A stretch of DNA of 32,000 nt from Candidatus Saccharimonadota bacterium. Its GTDB lineage: Bacteria; Pseudomonadota; Gammaproteobacteria; Enterobacterales; Enterobacteriaceae. Made by a program: the position numbers and the translations under genes. The stretch covers positions 1-32,000 of the forward strand of contig NZ_AP018162.1 of assembly GCF_004296475.1 (NCBI RefSeq), given 5' to 3'. The notes under the pieces are model-generated. The model saw nothing but the letters and a program-made list of their open reading frames with translations, had not been told where the DNA came from and did no database searches. This document shows, in pieces, positions 25,498 to 32,000 of the stretch; the first letter of the stretch is position 1, and every line of letters starts with the position of its first letter.

Positions 25498-26628
25498 ATG
25501 AGCAGTAATGATTTAGAATCATTAAATGATGCTGTAATAAAAGTTATAGGTATTGGTGGTGGAGGAAATAATGCTATAGAATATATGTCTAAAGAATATA
25601 TTAGTGGAGTTAATTTTTTTGCTGTTAATACTGATGCTCAGGCATTAAGAAAAATATCAATAGATAAAAAAATACAAATAGGTAAAAATATAACTAAAGG
25701 ATTAGGGGCTGGATCTAATCCAGAAATTGGTAAAAATGCAGCTGAAGAAGATAAAGAAATTTTAAAATCAATATTAGAAGGATCTGATATGGTATTTATA
25801 ACAGCAGGGATGGGAGGGGGTACTGGTACAGGAGCTTCTCCTATAATTGCAGAAATAGCTAAAGATTTAGGTATATTAACAGTAGCAATAGTTACTAAAC
25901 CTTTTAGTTTTGAAGGTAAAAAAAGATCATTATATGCTAATCAAGGGGTTTTATCATTATCTAAATTTGTTGATTCATTGATAGTTATACCTAATGATAA
26001 ATTATTAAAAACTTTTAATAGAGGCGTTTCATTATTAGATGCATTTAGTTATGCTAATAATATATTAAGAAATGCAATACAAGGTATATCTGAATTAGTT
26101 ACAAAACCAGGATTAATAAATGTAGATTTTGCTGATATAAGAACTGTTATGTCAGAAATGGGATATGCTATGATAGGAACAGGATCTTCTAAAGGAGAAA
26201 ATAGAGCTGAAGAAGCTACAAAAATAGCAATATCTAGTCCATTATTAGAAGATGTAGATTTATCTGGAGCAAAAGGAGTTTTAATAAATATATCAGCAAA
26301 TTTTGATTTAAAATTAGATGAATTTGAATTAATAGGAAATTCAATAAGAAAATTTGCTTCTGAAGAAGCAACTGTTGTTATAGGAACATCATTAGACTCA
26401 AGTATGAGTGATGAGATAAGGGTAACTATAGTCGCCACGGGGATTCAATTAGATAAAATATCAGATATTAATATAATATATAAAAATAAAAATATTTTTT
26501 CAAATGAAAAACCTTTTATACAGCAAAATAAAAATGAAAATAATTTTAAAAATTTAAAAAATAATAATTTAACAGATAATTTAGAATATTTAAATATTCC
26601 TTCATTTTTAAGAAACCCTATTGATTAA
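25498..26628 (+). CDS. ftsZ: Cell division GTPase FtsZ
   Basis: The 376 aa ORF has 'IKVIGIGGGGNNA', the tubulin signature 'GMGGGTGTGASPIIAEIAK' and 'NVDFADIRTVM'. The conserved C-terminal peptide 'LEYLNIPSFLRN' (E. coli 'DYLDIPAFLRK') follows an N/K-rich linker. The region is visibly less AT-rich than its neighbours. Confidence 0.98.
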   Translation: MSSNDLESLNDAVIKVIGIGGGGNNAIEYMSKEYISGVNFFAVNTDAQALRKISIDKKIQIGKNITKGLGAGSNPEIGKNAAEEDKEILKSILEGSDMVFITAGMGGGTGTGASPIIAEIAKDLGILTVAIVTKPFSFEGKKRSLYANQGVLSLSKFVDSLIVIPNDKLLKTFNRGVSLLDAFSYANNILRNAIQGISELVTKPGLINVDFADIRTVMSEMGYAMIGTGSSKGENRAEEATKIAISSPLLEDVDLSGAKGVLINISANFDLKLDEFELIGNSIRKFASEEATVVIGTSLDSSMSDEIRVTIVATGIQLDKISDINIIYKNKNIFSNEKPFIQQNKNENNFKNLKNNNLTDNLEYLNIPSFLRNPID

Positions 26629-26635
26629 AATTAAA

Positions 26636-29056
26636 ATGTTCTTAAAAAAAATATTTGATTTAATTTTTATTAAAAAGTATAGAAATATAAAAAATATTAT
26701 TAATTTAATAAATTCCAATGAAAAAATATTAAATAAATTAACAGATAAAGAATTAAAAAATAAAACTAATGAATTTAAAAATAGAATTAAAAATGGAGAA
26801 AATATATATAGTAATAAACTTATAAGTGATTCTTTTTCTGTAGTAAAAGAATCTAGTAAAAGAATTTTTGGAATTAAACATTTTGATGTTCAATTATTAG
26901 GAGGATTAATATTACATAATAATGCAATAGCAGAAATGTATACAGGTGAAGGTAAAACATTAACATCAACTTTGCCTGCATATTTAAATGCATTAGATGG
27001 GAATGGAGTTCATATAGTTACCGTAAATGAATATTTAGCTAAAAGAGATGCTGAATATAATAAATTATTATTTGATTTTCTTGGATTAAAAGTAGGTATA
27101 AATCTTTCAAATATGTCTATTTATGAAAAAAAAGATGCATATTATTCAGATATAACATATGGAACTAATTATGAATTTTGTTTTGATTATTTAAAAGATA
27201 ATTTAGTTTTAGATTTAAATGATAAAGTTCAAAGAAAATTGAATTACGCTATTATAGATGAAATAGATTCTATATTAATAGATGAAGCTAGAGTTCCATT
27301 AATAATATCTGAAAAAAATAAAATAGATGTTAGTATATATTTAAAAATAAATAATTTAGTTATAGAATTAATAAATATAAATAAATTAAATAATAATAAA
27401 TATTTTTTAATAAATTTTAAAGAAAAAATTGTAGATATTACAGATGATGGATTTATTTTAATAGAAAATTTATTAATAAAATATAAATTTATAAAATATG
27501 GTAATTTATTATATATTAATGAGAATTTAATTCTTATAGAATATATAATATCATCAATAAAATCATATAAATTTTTTAATAAAAATGTAGATTATATATT
27601 AAAAAACAAAAAAATTATATTAATAGATGAACATACTGGAAGATTATCTATTGGTAAAAGATTATCTAATAGTATACATCAATTTATAGAAGCTAAAGAA
27701 AATGTTGATATTTTATGTGAAAATAAAAATTTAGCATATATAACTTTTCAAAGTTATTTTAAATTATATAATAAAATATCAGGTATGACTGGAACAGCTA
27801 GTACTGAAAAAGATGAATTTAAATATATATATAATTTAGATATATTTAATATACCTACTAATAAACCTATAATAAGAAAAGATTTACCAGATTTATTTTT
27901 TGTAAATGAAAAAGATAAAATAAAAAAAATAATTAATGATGTTATTTTATGTATAAAAAATAATAGACCTGTTTTAATAGGAACCATTTCAATTGAAAAA
28001 TCAGAATTAATATCTAAATATTTAAATGAAAATAATATAAATCATCAAATTCTTAATGCAAAAAATCATAATTTAGAAGCAAAAATTATATCATTCGCAG
28101 GAAGGCCTGGTAGTGTAACAATAGCTACAAATATGGCTGGAAGAGGAACTAATATAGTTTTAGGAGGATGTTATTTAAATAAAGATGATATAGAAGAATG
28201 GAAAATAAATAATATTAAAGTTATAAATTCTGGAGGATTGCATATTATTGGAACTGAAAGACATGAATCTAGAAGAATAGATAATCAACTAATAGGAAGA
28301 TCTGGTAGACAGGGAGACCCTGGCTCGTCTAGATTTTATTTATCTTTAGAAGATAATTTAATTAAAAATATGTTACCTAATAATATTTTAGATATAATAA
28401 AAAATTTAAAATTAAATGATGATCTAAAAAATAATTCTATTTTATTATCAAAAATAATATCAAATATACAGAAAAAAATAGAAAAAAATAATTTCGAAAT
28501 TAGAAAACAAATTTTTATATATGATGATATATTCAATATACAAAGAAATACATTTTATTTTATAAGAAATAGTTTACTTAATAAAAATATTAATATAATA
28601 AATAATTTTATATTTGATTCAATAAAATATATAATTAATCTTTATAAGTTTAATAATATAAAAAATGAAATAGATGATTTAAAACTTTTTTTTAAAAAAA
28701 ATTTTAATATAGATATTATTATAAATGAAAATAATAAAAAATTAGATATAAAAGATAGTATTTTTGATTTTATAAAAAAAGAATTATTATTAATTGAAAA
28801 ATTAATAGATAAAAAAAAATTAGATAATATGAAAATATCTATATTTATAAATACGTTAGATTCTGTATGGACTGAACATATTAATTTTATAGATTTTATA
28901 AAAAAAGGTATATATTTAAGATCATATGCTAATAGAGATCCATTTGATGAATATAAAAATGATTCATTTGAAATGTTTGTATCAATGATAAAATTATGGA
29001 AATATAAAAGCACATTAATATTATATAAAACTATGAATTTAATTAATAATGAATAA
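26636..29056 (+). CDS. secA: Preprotein translocase ATPase SecA, lacking the C-terminal linker and zinc-binding tail
   Basis: The protein is collinear with E. coli SecA from 'MFLKKIFDLIF' (E. coli 'MLIKLLTKVFG'). It carries 'HFDVQLLGG', 'AEMYTGEGKTLTSTLPAYLNAL', 'DEIDSILIDEARVPLIIS' and 'GMTGTA'. It also has 'TIATNMAGRGTNIVLGG' and 'GGLHIIGTERHESRRIDNQL.GRSGRQGDPGSSRFYLS'. I prefer the ATG at 26636 to the TTG at 26621 offered by the ORF track. The protein ends about where the E. coli helical scaffold/wing region ends. Confidence 0.95.
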   Translation: MFLKKIFDLIFIKKYRNIKNIINLINSNEKILNKLTDKELKNKTNEFKNRIKNGENIYSNKLISDSFSVVKESSKRIFGIKHFDVQLLGGLILHNNAIAEMYTGEGKTLTSTLPAYLNALDGNGVHIVTVNEYLAKRDAEYNKLLFDFLGLKVGINLSNMSIYEKKDAYYSDITYGTNYEFCFDYLKDNLVLDLNDKVQRKLNYAIIDEIDSILIDEARVPLIISEKNKIDVSIYLKINNLVIELININKLNNNKYFLINFKEKIVDITDDGFILIENLLIKYKFIKYGNLLYINENLILIEYIISSIKSYKFFNKNVDYILKNKKIILIDEHTGRLSIGKRLSNSIHQFIEAKENVDILCENKNLAYITFQSYFKLYNKISGMTGTASTEKDEFKYIYNLDIFNIPTNKPIIRKDLPDLFFVNEKDKIKKIINDVILCIKNNRPVLIGTISIEKSELISKYLNENNINHQILNAKNHNLEAKIISFAGRPGSVTIATNMAGRGTNIVLGGCYLNKDDIEEWKINNIKVINSGGLHIIGTERHESRRIDNQLIGRSGRQGDPGSSRFYLSLEDNLIKNMLPNNILDIIKNLKLNDDLKNNSILLSKIISNIQKKIEKNNFEIRKQIFIYDDIFNIQRNTFYFIRNSLLNKNINIINNFIFDSIKYIINLYKFNNIKNEIDDLKLFFKKNFNIDIIINENNKKLDIKDSIFDFIKKELLLIEKLIDKKKLDNMKISIFINTLDSVWTEHINFIDFIKKGIYLRSYANRDPFDEYKNDSFEMFVSMIKLWKYKSTLILYKTMNLINNE

Positions 29057-30464
29057 TAAAAAACATATTTATATAATAAACAAATTATTTATTAATCTTA
29101 AAAAAATAAATAAAAATAATTTAAATTATTTATTTAATAATGACTATGATAGATTTAGTAAATTTTCTTTTTTAAAGAATGATATTTTAATAGATTATTC
29201 TAGAAATTTTTTAAATTTAGAAATATTAAAACTATTAATAAAATTATCTATTAATTTTAATATAGATAAATTTATAAAAAATGAAATAAATATAAAAAAT
29301 AATTTAATAATAAGTGATAAAGATATTTATAAATTTTTTATTAGTAATGATAAGATAAATATTTTTAGTAAGTTTTTAAGCAAAAAAAAAATAAATATTT
29401 TATTAAAATTAAAATATGAATATTCTTTATATGAAAAAAAAATTTTATTTTTAATAAATATATATGATGATAATTTATTTTTTTTTTATATAATAAAATT
29501 TTTAAATAAATATAAAAAGAAAAATTTAATTTTACTTAAAATTAATATTAATAATATAGATGTTATATTAAATAAATATGATATAAATTTAAATAATTCA
29601 TTATTTTTTGCATTTATAGAAAAAGATATTAATATAAATTACATATTAAAATTAAATAGTAAATTTAATTTTAATATATTAGATAATACTTTATTTTTTA
29701 TAAAAAATAAAAGTAATATAATTAATATTTTTTTAAAATATAAAATATATAATTTTAAATATATAGAAAATATTAAAAATAATATAAATTTTTATTTAAA
29801 TATTGGATTATTAATATCAATATATACTAATTTAAATGTTTTTTATGATCTTATATATGGAATTATATATTTTAGAAATTATATATATAATAATTTAAAT
29901 TCTAATATATCTTTTATATTAGGTATAATAGATATATGGAATGTGTTTTTTTTAAATAAAAAAAATAAATATATAGTATCAAATATAAAAAATAGTATTT
30001 TTTTTATTAAAAAATATAATTATAAAATAAAAAATAATAATTTTATAAAAAATAATTATTTTAATAAAAATTTATCATTTGATTATTTATTATATATAAA
30101 TAATATAAAAGATGAATATATATCTAAAATATTTTCTATTATAGAAAATATAACATTTTTTAATAATAAATATATAAAAAATACAAACTATTTTGATAAA
30201 TCATTAAATATTATAATAATAAAAAATATTAATCCTTTTAATATTGGTATATTAGATTCTATATATGAATTTAGAACAAAAATATATTTTTTTATTAAAA
30301 AAAAGATAGAAACAATATTAAATAATATTAATAATACTAATATATTAAATAAAGTATTAACTAAAAAAATAAATTCAGATTTAATAACAGAAAAACAAAT
30401 AGTCGAATATAACTCTTCTATGAACGGGATAATAAATTTTTATAAAAAATATAGAAATTTATAA
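29049..30464 (+). CDS. pgi: Glucose-6-phosphate isomerase homologue, highly degenerate with catalytic motifs not recognisable; function uncertain
   Basis: In this 471 aa ORF the N-terminal 'DRFSKFSFLKNDILIDYSRN' matches E. coli Pgi '[21 protein letters not shown]'. 'INPFNIGILDSIYEFRTKIYFFI' matches '[23 protein letters not shown]', and the C-terminal 'YNSSMNGIINFYKKYR' matches 'HDSSTNGLINRYKAWR'. The central GIGGSDLG, SKT..TTQET, GGRYS, NMESNGK and GTNGQHAFYQ motifs are replaced by N/I/K/F-rich sequence. The ORF is about 78 aa shorter than E. coli Pgi. Confidence 0.6.
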   Translation: MNNKKHIYIINKLFINLKKINKNNLNYLFNNDYDRFSKFSFLKNDILIDYSRNFLNLEILKLLIKLSINFNIDKFIKNEINIKNNLIISDKDIYKFFISNDKINIFSKFLSKKKINILLKLKYEYSLYEKKILFLINIYDDNLFFFYIIKFLNKYKKKNLILLKININNIDVILNKYDINLNNSLFFAFIEKDININYILKLNSKFNFNILDNTLFFIKNKSNIINIFLKYKIYNFKYIENIKNNINFYLNIGLLISIYTNLNVFYDLIYGIIYFRNYIYNNLNSNISFILGIIDIWNVFFLNKKNKYIVSNIKNSIFFIKKYNYKIKNNNFIKNNYFNKNLSFDYLLYINNIKDEYISKIFSIIENITFFNNKYIKNTNYFDKSLNIIIIKNINPFNIGILDSIYEFRTKIYFFIKKKIETILNNINNTNILNKVLTKKINSDLITEKQIVEYNSSMNGIINFYKKYRNL

Positions 30465-31028
30465 ATTATTTTTAACTTTTGATATATATTCTTTTTTTTC
30501 TATATTTACTCTTATAATATCTCCACTTTTTATAAAAAGTGGAGATTTTATCATTAAGTTATTTCCTAAATCAGATAATACATAATTATTATTTACACAA
30601 ATAATATTTATAACTTTAAAATTTATAATTTTAGGTATTATTATATTTATAAAAATTTTATTAAGAAAAATTAATTTATAATTAATTTTTTTAAATATAA
30701 AAATATATTTATTTTTTATTAAATTAATATCTATTTTTATATGAGATTCATCTTCACATGAAATAAAAAAAAAAATATTTTTAACTCTATATAGAAAAAA
30801 ACAACTTTTTTCTATAATATAAGCTTTTTTTATATTATCTTTAGATTTAAATACTTTATCTAAAATTTTATTAGAAATAATATTTTTAATTCTTATTCTG
30901 TTAAATGATAAACCTTTACCTGATTTTATAAATTCATTTTTTATAACTATAAAAGGTTCATCATTATATATTATCTTGTCTCCTATATTTAAATTATCTA
31001 TTAAAATATTTCTAATACTATTTTTCAT
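30459..31028 (-). CDS. efp: Elongation factor P
   Basis: In this 189 aa ORF 'DEPFIVIKNEFIKSGKGLSFNRIRIKN' aligns with E. coli '[27 protein letters not shown]', and the modified-lysine loop K-x-G-K-G is retained. The C-terminal 'IKSPLFIKSGDIIRVNIEKKEYISKVK' aligns with '[27 protein letters not shown]'. It lies directly downstream of groEL, as in Buchnera-type gene orders. Confidence 0.85.
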   Translation of the reverse strand: MKNSIRNILIDNLNIGDKIIYNDEPFIVIKNEFIKSGKGLSFNRIRIKNIISNKILDKVFKSKDNIKKAYIIEKSCFFLYRVKNIFFFISCEDESHIKIDINLIKNKYIFIFKKINYKLIFLNKIFINIIIPKIINFKVINIICVNNNYVLSDLGNNLMIKSPLFIKSGDIIRVNIEKKEYISKVKNNL

Positions 31029-31050
31029 TAGAAATTATATAAAAATTTTA

Positions 31051-32000
31051 TTAAATCATACCTCCTCCCATATTTTGAGGCATATTTGAATTATTTATGT
31101 CAGATGATTTATCATCTTTATTCATATCTGTTATCATACATTCTGTAGTTATCATTAATCCAGCAACTGATGCAGCATATTGTAAAGCTGATCTAGTAAC
31201 TTTAGTAGGATCTAATATACCCATATCTATCATATTTCCATATTTTTCAGTATATGCATTATATCCAAAATTACCTTTTTCCATTTTTATTTTATTTGCT
31301 ATTATTGATGGTTCTTCTCCAGTATTAGAAACTATTTGACGTAAAGGTGATTCCATAGCTTTTATTGCAATTTTTATACCAACATCTTGATCTTCATTAT
31401 CTCCTTTTAATGAACTAATACTATTAGAAACTCTAATTAATGCTACCCCTCCACCAGGAACAACTCCTTCTTCAACAGCAGCTCTGGTAGCATTTAATGC
31501 ATCTTCAACTCTAGATTTTTTTTCTTTCATTTCAACTTCAGTTGCAGCCCCAACTTTTATAACAGCAACTCCCCCAGCTAATTTAGCAATTCTTTCTTGT
31601 AATTTTTCTTTATCATAATCTGAAGTTGATTCCTCTTTTTGTTTATTTATCTGATTTATTCTTTTATCTATAGATAATTTATCTCCAAATCCATCTATTA
31701 TAGTTGTAGTATCTTTACTTATTATAACTTTTTTAGCTTGTCCTAAATCTTTTATATTTATTTTTTCTAACTCTATTCCTATTTCTTCAGATACTAATAT
31801 CCCCCCAGTTAATATTGCTATGTCTTGCATCATAGATTTTTTTCTATCTCCAAATCCAGGAGCTTTAACAGCAACAGTTCTAACTATCCCTCTCATATTA
31901 TTAACAACTAAAGTTGCTAACGCTTCTCCTTCAACATCTTCTGCTATTATTAATATAGATTTATTAGATTTTGCAACATTTTCTAGTATAGATATAATTT
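31051..32000 (-). CDS. groEL: Chaperonin GroEL (C-terminal ~316 codons; the 5' part lies beyond the window)
   Basis: Reading the minus strand by hand past the track's internal Met (31896) keeps the frame open to nt 32000. It gives '...[42 protein letters not shown]', matching E. coli '...[42 protein letters not shown]'. The protein ends in a G/M-rich tail, 'NMGGGMI'. Confidence 0.97.

Follow-up and report, generated by a model that had tools for sequence, protein, structure and literature searches.

A pgi-derived reading frame without its catalytic motifs stays open downstream of secA in a Nardonella genome

The window analysed here, 32,000 nucleotides in length, is the start of contig 1 of the tiny genome of the weevil symbiont Nardonella, which comprises 232,663 bp on two contigs. 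This genome is labelled G000, and the three congener Nardonella genomes with which it was compared are labelled G001, G002 and G003. Directly after an intact secA lies an open reading frame (ORF) that starts with ATG, encodes 471 amino acids, ends with TAA, and derives from pgi, the gene for glucose-6-phosphate isomerase (Table 1); it is referred to below as the relic. Both the coordinates and frame of this ORF, to which a sequence-only reading of the window had drawn attention, and the 8-nt overlap of its ATG with the secA stop, were reproduced. With a GC content of 8.3%, it ranks fourth lowest among the 215 ORFs of the genome, and the most AT-rich kilobase of the window (7.8% GC) is the one containing it. 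Translation of the relic is likely coupled to that of secA, because no Shine-Dalgarno-like sequence was seen upstream of the overlapping ATG. At its other end, it meets the convergent efp tail to tail. The relic is therefore the last gene of its co-directional array, with a same-strand downstream gene being absent in both G000 and G001.

Table 1. The relic, its five segments and its flanks, in window coordinates (z, conservation between the relic and its G001 orthologue relative to codon shuffles; pLDDT, predicted local distance difference test score)
Feature	Coordinates	Strand	Evidence
pgi-derived 471-codon open frame, TAA stop included	29049..30464	+	ORF list, Pfam and NCBIfam matches, no internal stops
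Residues 1-95, N-terminal module (DRFSKFS, ILIDYSRN)	29049..29333	+	z=7.9, 43% identity to G001; pLDDT 73-91 at residues 1-80
Residues 96-200, former small-domain/phosphate-binding region	29334..29648	+	z=-0.1; 8.7 stops expected, 0 seen, P=1e-4
Residues 201-310, weakly conserved middle; Arg replaced by N245, IWY anchor as IWN	29649..29978	+	z=3.2
Residues 311-385, collapsed catalytic region	29979..30203	+	z=-0.5; P(0 stops)=2e-3; pLDDT <50 at residues 306-344
Residues 386-471, C-terminal module (NPFNIGIL..IYE, SSMNGIINFYKKYR), K435	30204..30461	+	z=8.7; PF00342 match at residues 383-462; pLDDT 64-89
secA, intact, 5' neighbour; its stop overlaps the relic start	26621..29056	+	SecA_DEAD 364.7 bits and further SecA domains
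8-nt overlap ATGAATAA of secA stop (TAA, 29054-29056) and relic ATG	29049..29056	+	ORF list and local sequence
6-nt tail-to-tail overlap of relic and convergent efp (30459-31028, minus strand)	30459..30464	.	ORF list; EFP_N, Elong-fact-P_C
Perfect 28-nt palindrome ATCTCCACTTTTTATAAAAAGTGGAGAT within the 3' end of efp	30519..30546	.	1 found vs 0.0 expected in shuffles

The homology of the relic to pgi is secure. Both ends are recognisable as Pgi, as had been proposed by eye: the match to the Pfam family PF00342 (20.8 bits, against a gathering threshold of 22) is confined to the C-terminal module, and the best stretch of the match to the NCBIfam model NF001211 (47.3 bits, against a cut-off of 492) covers residues 10-77. 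The relic falls below both of these curated thresholds, reaching one tenth of the NCBIfam equivalog cut-off, and scores 34.8 bits with a custom hidden Markov model (HMM) built from 19 enterobacterial Pgi proteins. When joined with the orthologous ORF of G001 in a two-sequence profile, it matches PGI crystal structures with E=1.4e-18. Canonical Pgi, as defined by PF00342 and NF001211 and exemplified by the structures from E. coli (PDB 3NBU) and Elizabethkingia (6BZB), shares with the relic the N-terminal DRFSKFS/ILIDYS.N block, the IW anchor, the NP..LG..I..YE motif and the C-terminal SS.NG.IN.YK. It differs in that the relic has lost the phosphate-binding loops, along with Arg270, Glu355 and His386. 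Hence the relic is a relative of the PGI family, rather than a functional member of it.

The loss of catalytic and binding residues was mapped with both MAFFT and hmmalign, which were in agreement, and is described using the residue numbers of E. coli-type Pgi. The sequence-only reading had held that two substrate-binding elements were replaced, that the catalytic Glu and His motifs could not be recognised, and that about 78 residues were missing, all of which is upheld by these alignments. GIGGSDLG has become YDDNLF, such that S158 corresponds to D141, and SKTFTTQET has become AFIEKDI, with S207, K208 and T209 deleted and T212 replaced by F189. The Arg270 of GGRYS corresponds to N245. The whole MESNGK motif is absent, with the Glu355 column containing K326 (MAFFT) or a gap (hmmalign), while the His386 column of GTNGQHAFYQ contains L342 or a gap. 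The stretch of the profile that includes Glu355 and His386, about 84 positions, has shrunk to about 23 residues, with the domains matched by the custom HMM ending at profile position 336 and restarting at 421; the full protein is short relative to references of 548-549 amino acids. The same reading had allowed that a profile alignment might reveal the catalytic residues to be conserved after all, but the sole catalytic residue with a counterpart is Lys514 of ELGK, the column of which contains K435; Lys accounts for 14% of the residues, and the enclosing FDQWGVELG motif has gone. The composition is similarly depleted: His (residue 6), Pro, Ala and Trp occur once each, Gly occurs five times and Cys never, and I, N, K, L, F and Y constitute 81% of the protein. 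AT drift alone does not erase enzymes in this genome, because other genes of very low GC content stay above their Pfam thresholds: glyS (9.5% GC) scores 240 bits, tilS 139 bits, a PAP2 protein 70 bits and lspA 54 bits. On the strength of the mapped motifs, it is very likely that the relic is not an isomerase.

The metabolic context in which such an isomerase would operate is greatly reduced. The suggestion that the glycolytic and pentose-phosphate genes depending on Pgi be sought was followed in G000-G003, and searches of these genomes found none of glmS, pfkA, class II fba (fbaA), talB, zwf or gapA. By contrast with these, tkt is present in G000, G001 and G002, although missing from G003; transketolase was the sole central-carbon enzyme found among those searched. 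From this gene content, it appears that transketolase is the only remaining consumer of fructose-6-phosphate. From it, transketolase is able to produce the erythrose-4-phosphate that enters the shikimate and tyrosine pathway. The tyrosine pathway is what these weevil symbionts are kept for (PMC11984157), and the symbionts would have to import the phosphoenolpyruvate and sugar phosphates that feed it. Because G002 keeps tkt without pgi, the host can evidently supply the substrate of transketolase, which would make catalysis by Pgi dispensable.

These same genes provide the best case for the first option left by the sequence-only reading, that of an extremely diverged but active isomerase, which would feed fructose-6-phosphate to transketolase for the synthesis of erythrose-4-phosphate and tyrosine. 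A route from glucose-6-phosphate through fructose-6-phosphate to erythrose-4-phosphate makes metabolic sense, tkt is retained in the same genomes as the pgi-derived ORFs, and the overall Pgi scaffold remains recognisable. However, such an enzyme would have to function with Arg270 and all the Ser, Thr and Lys phosphate ligands gone, with its only His at the extreme N terminus, with the Glu355/His386 region cut to about a quarter of its length, and with a score far below the NF001211 cut-off, and G002 does without it entirely. The existence of an active enzyme at this locus is therefore extremely improbable.

The relic frame itself is intact. It contains no internal stops, compared with 78, 97, 54, 15 and 50 in the other five frames. 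The position-specific composition of the ORF leads to an expectation that 7.7% of codons should be stops, giving a probability of 5e-17 that the frame is open by chance, which falls to 2e-28 when calculated from mononucleotide composition. Each of the five segments in Table 1 is individually depleted of stops, in G000 and G001 alike. An antisense gene overlying the relic was considered and rejected, because the minus frames contain 15-54 stops. The longest spurious ORF is 129 amino acids in length, as the sequence-only reading had stated, and was located at 26049-26438 on the minus strand.

Neutral decay was simulated in 40 runs, using real symbiont pgi genes as the starting sequences. The first stop arises with 92-93% of the invariant Pgi columns as yet unaltered, whereas 29% of these 145 columns are retained in G000, and 36% in G001. 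At the observed level of retention, the simulated genes had acquired 33-48 stops, and never fewer than 22. A simulation with a strongly GC-to-AT-biased spectrum generated 39-42 stops, with a minimum of 29, while reproducing the observed GC content (8.5-9.8%) and, roughly, the pattern of retention. Insertions and deletions (indels) follow the same rule as stops: relative to canonical Pgi, there are about 14 internal deletions and two insertions in G000, and about 11 and five respectively in G001, all of which are in frame, compared with 0-3 indels in working symbiont Pgi proteins. Hence neither the 471 codons of G000 nor the 495 codons of G001 exhibit the stops or frameshifts that are the hallmark of a pseudogene.

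The idea that this is nevertheless an ordinary young pseudogene, in which too little time has elapsed since inactivation for stops to appear, has some features in its favour, as no ORF common to both genomes is less conserved, the composition and retention pattern fit neutral AT-driven decay, and the gene has been deleted in two congeners. Yet the simulations place the first stop at the very beginning of the erosion that the relic has undergone, both copies lack any stop, their indels (about 16 each) all preserve the frame, and a mutation process that is unable to generate stops is excluded by the 15-97 present in the other frames. This option of the sequence-only reading is consequently highly improbable. 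Rather, its argument that so long an open frame in AT-rich DNA reflects selection on translation is sustained by the frame statistics, the two simulations and the open orthologue in G001, and the reading frame of the relic is very probably under selection. The relic thereby has two of the properties by which a pseudoenzyme is recognised: it is an enzyme homologue without catalytic residues, and its coding frame has been maintained, with no stops against the 33-48 expected under neutrality, in-frame indels, and the repetition of this pattern in a second lineage.

That second lineage is represented by G001, the closest congener, with a genome of 226,299 bp, the proteins of which are labelled by NCBI as from the "endosymbiont of Pachyrhynchus infernalis". 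The orthologue is a stop-free ORF of 495 amino acids that starts 3 nt after secA and is followed by the convergent rho; it corresponds to BBA84769.1 / WP_130579049.1, and is annotated as a "hypothetical protein". It resembles the relic in its position after secA, loss of motifs, open frame and composition. It is less eroded, scoring 69 bits with PF00342 (vs 20.8) and 86 bits with the custom HMM (vs 35), but every catalytic and phosphate-binding residue has been lost from this copy too. Unlike the relic, it keeps a VNIG motif, has rho instead of efp downstream, and preserves the Glu/His region as sequence, albeit without those residues.

The other two congeners have dispensed with the gene. In G002, secA is directly followed by groEL, and both pgi and efp have gone; at about G002:C1:56794-56850, the end of the convergent groEL lies within about 45 nt of secA, apparently through deletion of the whole pgi-efp block. 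In G003, secA has other genes after it, and a search of the genome found no pgi. The frameshifts or stops that the sequence-only reading thought sister genomes might carry, as in an ordinary decaying pseudogene, are thus replaced by either an open copy or a clean deletion. A quartet tree of 112 proteins supports the topology (G000,G002)|(G001,G003) with 100% support, and the median protein identity among the four genomes is 49-54%, representing deep divergence. Because this topology allows no fewer than two independent deletions, pgi has been deleted twice and kept open twice under any rooting.

Searches for more distant relatives were affected by the composition of the relic. As a protein query, the relic ORF alone returned only itself, with low-complexity words swamping the candidates, and a locus search of genome contigs, the patterns for which were also of low complexity, returned only one canonical Bacteroidetes pgi. 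A HMMER search of 1.84 billion representative proteins with the two-sequence profile retrieved only the two Nardonella ORFs, followed by ordinary Pgi proteins, 13 of the 14 examined carrying the motifs. In the same representative library, P0005 is a Pgi homologue of 539 amino acids that is not AT-rich, in which the motifs read IGIAHSRLG, SSQGFDQS and DMQNNGK (Glu replaced by Gln), with the His motif kept; its sequence suggests that it may be on the way to inactivity.

Between the two copies, identity is 28% in a Pgi-anchored alignment, compared with the 12.5% expected from composition. A phmmer genome search fails to link the G000 and G001 ORFs, but a shuffle test does so, as their global alignment score lies 9.6 standard deviations above shuffles (z=9.6). 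The ratio of nonsynonymous to synonymous substitution rates (dN/dS), which had been suggested as a test, was rejected as unusable, because of saturation at synonymous sites, and because nearly all codons offer a single choice: 96% of third positions are A or T, and the concordance of Ile ATT/ATA codons is 15, against 16.3 expected by chance. Instead, the conservation of each segment was expressed as a z score relative to codon shuffles, and used alongside the frame statistics and simulations. Among 555 segments from 173 bona fide orthologue pairs, the median z was 20 and 1.1% were at z<2, all of these being first or last segments. By this measure, the relic is the least constrained ORF shared by G000 and G001, and the parts that were formerly the most conserved in Pgi are now the least conserved between the copies, yet are free of stops (Table 1). 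At conserved Pgi columns, residues with AT-rich codons (F, Y, I, N, K, L) survive in 46-50% of cases, compared with 8-12% for other residue types. A neutral simulation from which stops were purged gave a retention of 81-82% at hydrophobic columns, against 77-82% observed, but under-predicted retention at polar columns, at 58-61% against the 72-76% observed. Hence the pattern is one of near-neutral drift of residues combined with strong purging of truncations, and modest extra constraint on the ends and on polarity.

This extra constraint is a reason to consider a neofunctionalised pseudoenzyme, in which the terminal parts of the large domain would bind or scaffold, and the eroded centre would act as a tether between them, a special case of the best explanation given below. 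The terminal segments are conserved despite saturated synonymous divergence, with z=7.9 and 8.7, where the catalytic segments have z of about 0. The termini also keep more of the conserved residues, both for those with AT-rich codons (about 54-67% vs 27-50%) and for others (12-22% vs 2-13%). Stop-free linkers would be expected were there a need to make the C terminus, the retention of polar positions exceeds the stop-purged neutral prediction, and the frame has remained open in two lineages, the reported age of the symbiosis being more than 125 million years (PMC2948499). Against this, retention of residues is independent between the lineages, the copies keep different motifs (DRFSKFS in G000 only, VNIG in G001 only), and the gene has been deleted in two congeners. 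Nor did a candidate partner or a new motif emerge, or any further member among the 1.84 billion representative proteins. Therefore, of the option of a neofunctionalised, non-catalytic protein in the sequence-only reading, the non-catalytic element is what remains standing, whereas a new function is disfavoured by the independent retention and the two deletions, and is unlikely.

The best reading of these sequences is that the relic would be a translated but non-catalytic protein, the frame of which is selected while its sequence is almost free to drift under AT mutation pressure. For the joint claim, that the relic is dead as an isomerase and its frame is under selection by whatever mechanism, we estimate a probability of roughly 0.6. 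Several steps could produce this state. Firstly, the loss of glycolysis, of amino-sugar synthesis and of the oxidative branch of the pentose-phosphate pathway would leave transketolase as the only enzyme needing fructose-6-phosphate, which would be supplied by the host. Secondly, the redundant gene could not readily be silenced, because it would lack its own promoter, and because its start overlaps, and is probably coupled to, secA. Thirdly, clean excision would be hard, because the relic overlaps essential neighbours at both ends, and the deletion in G002 also removed efp. Fourthly, truncating mutations would be purged if a full-length, Pgi-shaped product were harmless and fragments were harmful; alternatively, purging might occur if the N- and C-terminal parts, bound to one chain, performed some non-catalytic job. 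The former mechanism, of a trapped and tolerated product, is tentative, and we judge its chances to be somewhat short of even. Polarity on a downstream gene was also considered, and rejected: it cannot explain the open frame, because in both genomes no same-strand gene follows the ORF.

Five considerations weigh against this interpretation. Firstly, the role of the relic, if any, is dispensable, because G002 and G003 do without the gene. Secondly, the retention of residues in G000 is independent of that in G001 (odds ratio 1.37, p=0.45), which counts against a shared site-specific function, since such a function would predict correlation. Thirdly, that a truncated product should be costlier than a full-length one with such an extreme content of I, N, K, L, F and Y is an assumption. 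Fourthly, identical 11- and 4-residue gaps in the MAFFT alignments of both copies hint at erosion before they split, although HMMER aligns this region differently. Fifthly, the predicted structure indicates only that the sequence is compatible with a Pgi-like fold. The AlphaFold2 (AF2) model of the relic, for which the alignment included 19 canonical Pgi proteins, had a pLDDT of 63 and a predicted template modelling score of 0.66, with good confidence at residues 1-78, 250-300 and 385-470, and values below 50 at 80-144, 232-247 and 306-344. Foldseek matched this model to PGI at a template modelling score of about 0.62. Hence the superposition on a Pgi structure, proposed as a check by the sequence-only reading, was achieved, but it does not amount to independent proof of the fold or of foldability, because the alignment is dominated by canonical Pgi proteins.

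One further possible sign of death of the enzyme before the two copies split, the sharing of derived residues (26%, against 13% expected), was dropped. Parallel mutation pressure explains these residues, because in most cases the derived codon is the closest AT-rich neighbour of the ancestral one.

The flanks of the relic raise the alternative that it is a translated spacer, the product of which is irrelevant, and that it is the cover of the RNA by ribosomes that is needed. Such cover might serve to avoid Rho-dependent termination or decay extending back into the secA mRNA, or to let transcription get to the hairpin formed by the palindrome in the 3' end of efp. The palindrome, which encodes KSPLFIKSGD in efp on the minus strand, is perfect, unique, and 55 nt past the relic stop; as the sole terminator-like site in 28000-31200, it could serve the convergent secA-relic and groEL-efp transcripts as a terminator in both directions. 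The overlap of the relic start with the secA stop, and the two internal segments that are open without being conserved, are also what a spacer would predict. However, neither G000 nor G001 has a same-strand downstream gene to protect, no counterpart of the palindrome or comparable hairpin was found near the end of the G001 ORF, and secA manages without the relic in G002 and G003. Furthermore, protein-level conservation is seen in the C-terminal 86 residues, which remain Pgi-like in two different contexts, next to efp and next to rho. A spacer is hence improbable, and selection for a translated, non-catalytic product remains the best reading.

Other possible remnants of central metabolism were noticed in the same genomes. 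G001 contains an enolase-derived ORF of 401 amino acids at G001:C1:79924-81129 (plus strand), matching Enolase_C with 88 bits, with no enolase being found in the other three genomes; by eye, metal-ligand-like D/E/D residues and the Lys of ILIK are kept, and the SHRSGETED loop is lost. In G000, outside the window at G000:C1:192705-193394 on the minus strand, an ORF of 229 amino acids lies between ligA and tkt, and has the lowest GC content of the genome (6.7%). Its orthologue in G001 has 232 amino acids (G001:C1:160104-160802), and G002 lacks the ORF, with a gap of 318 bp at this position. This ORF has a weak match to PEP-utilisers_N (E=0.015) and a C-terminal 'FIKNGD..I....L...IYINP' like that of Enzyme I, and ligA lies near ptsH-ptsI in the E. 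coli gene order. It may be a second dead relic, of the N-terminal part of ptsI, that is open in the same two genomes as the pgi relic.

The persistence of the relic has consequences for both annotation and evolution. Annotation pipelines either name such an ORF after its ancestral enzyme, which generates a false metabolic reconstruction, or label it a "hypothetical protein", as is the case for the congener copy at NCBI; in G000, pgi is not to be treated as a functioning step. If pgi is dead, then this Nardonella would lack fructose-6-phosphate of its own for transketolase, erythrose-4-phosphate and tyrosine, and would import it from the weevil. In evolutionary terms, a frame that is protected while its sequence drifts, with two lineages retaining it and two deleting it, brings into focus why dead enzymes stay open in tiny genomes. 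The relic is an informative case as the last gene of an operon, meaning downstream protection is not the reason for its open frame. A general rule may be imagined for the smallest insect-symbiont genomes, in which useless enzymes would be neither shut down nor left to break, but would be translated at full length over tens of millions of years, either through selection against truncation, or because the dead scaffold could have a structural role in its N- and C-terminal large-domain module. We regard so broad a rule as speculative and rather unlikely; were it true, it would account for the pgi relic persisting across a symbiosis of such reported age.

In the literature searched, no mention of Nardonella together with pgi was found, and the relic is best compared with two other systems. 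Mammalian PGI, which appears under the names autocrine motility factor and neuroleukin (PDB 1IAT and 1DQR), is a protein of the PGI fold with a non-isomerase role; unlike the relic, it is also a fully active enzyme, such that the comparison is one of analogy only. The closer parallel is Carsonella ruddii, in which open ORFs can be traced to ancestral enzymes from which essential domains or residues are missing, with 20 being probably non-functional (Tamames et al. 2007, PMC2175510). Like the relic, these belong to a tiny, extremely AT-rich genome of an insect symbiont, and are open yet eroded. Whereas loss of function in Carsonella ruddii was deduced from missing residues, the frame of the relic was tested against neutral decay, and across four congeners. 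Hence the relic adds to this precedent a replicated pattern of retention and deletion, at an operon-terminal position that excludes polarity as the explanation for an open frame.

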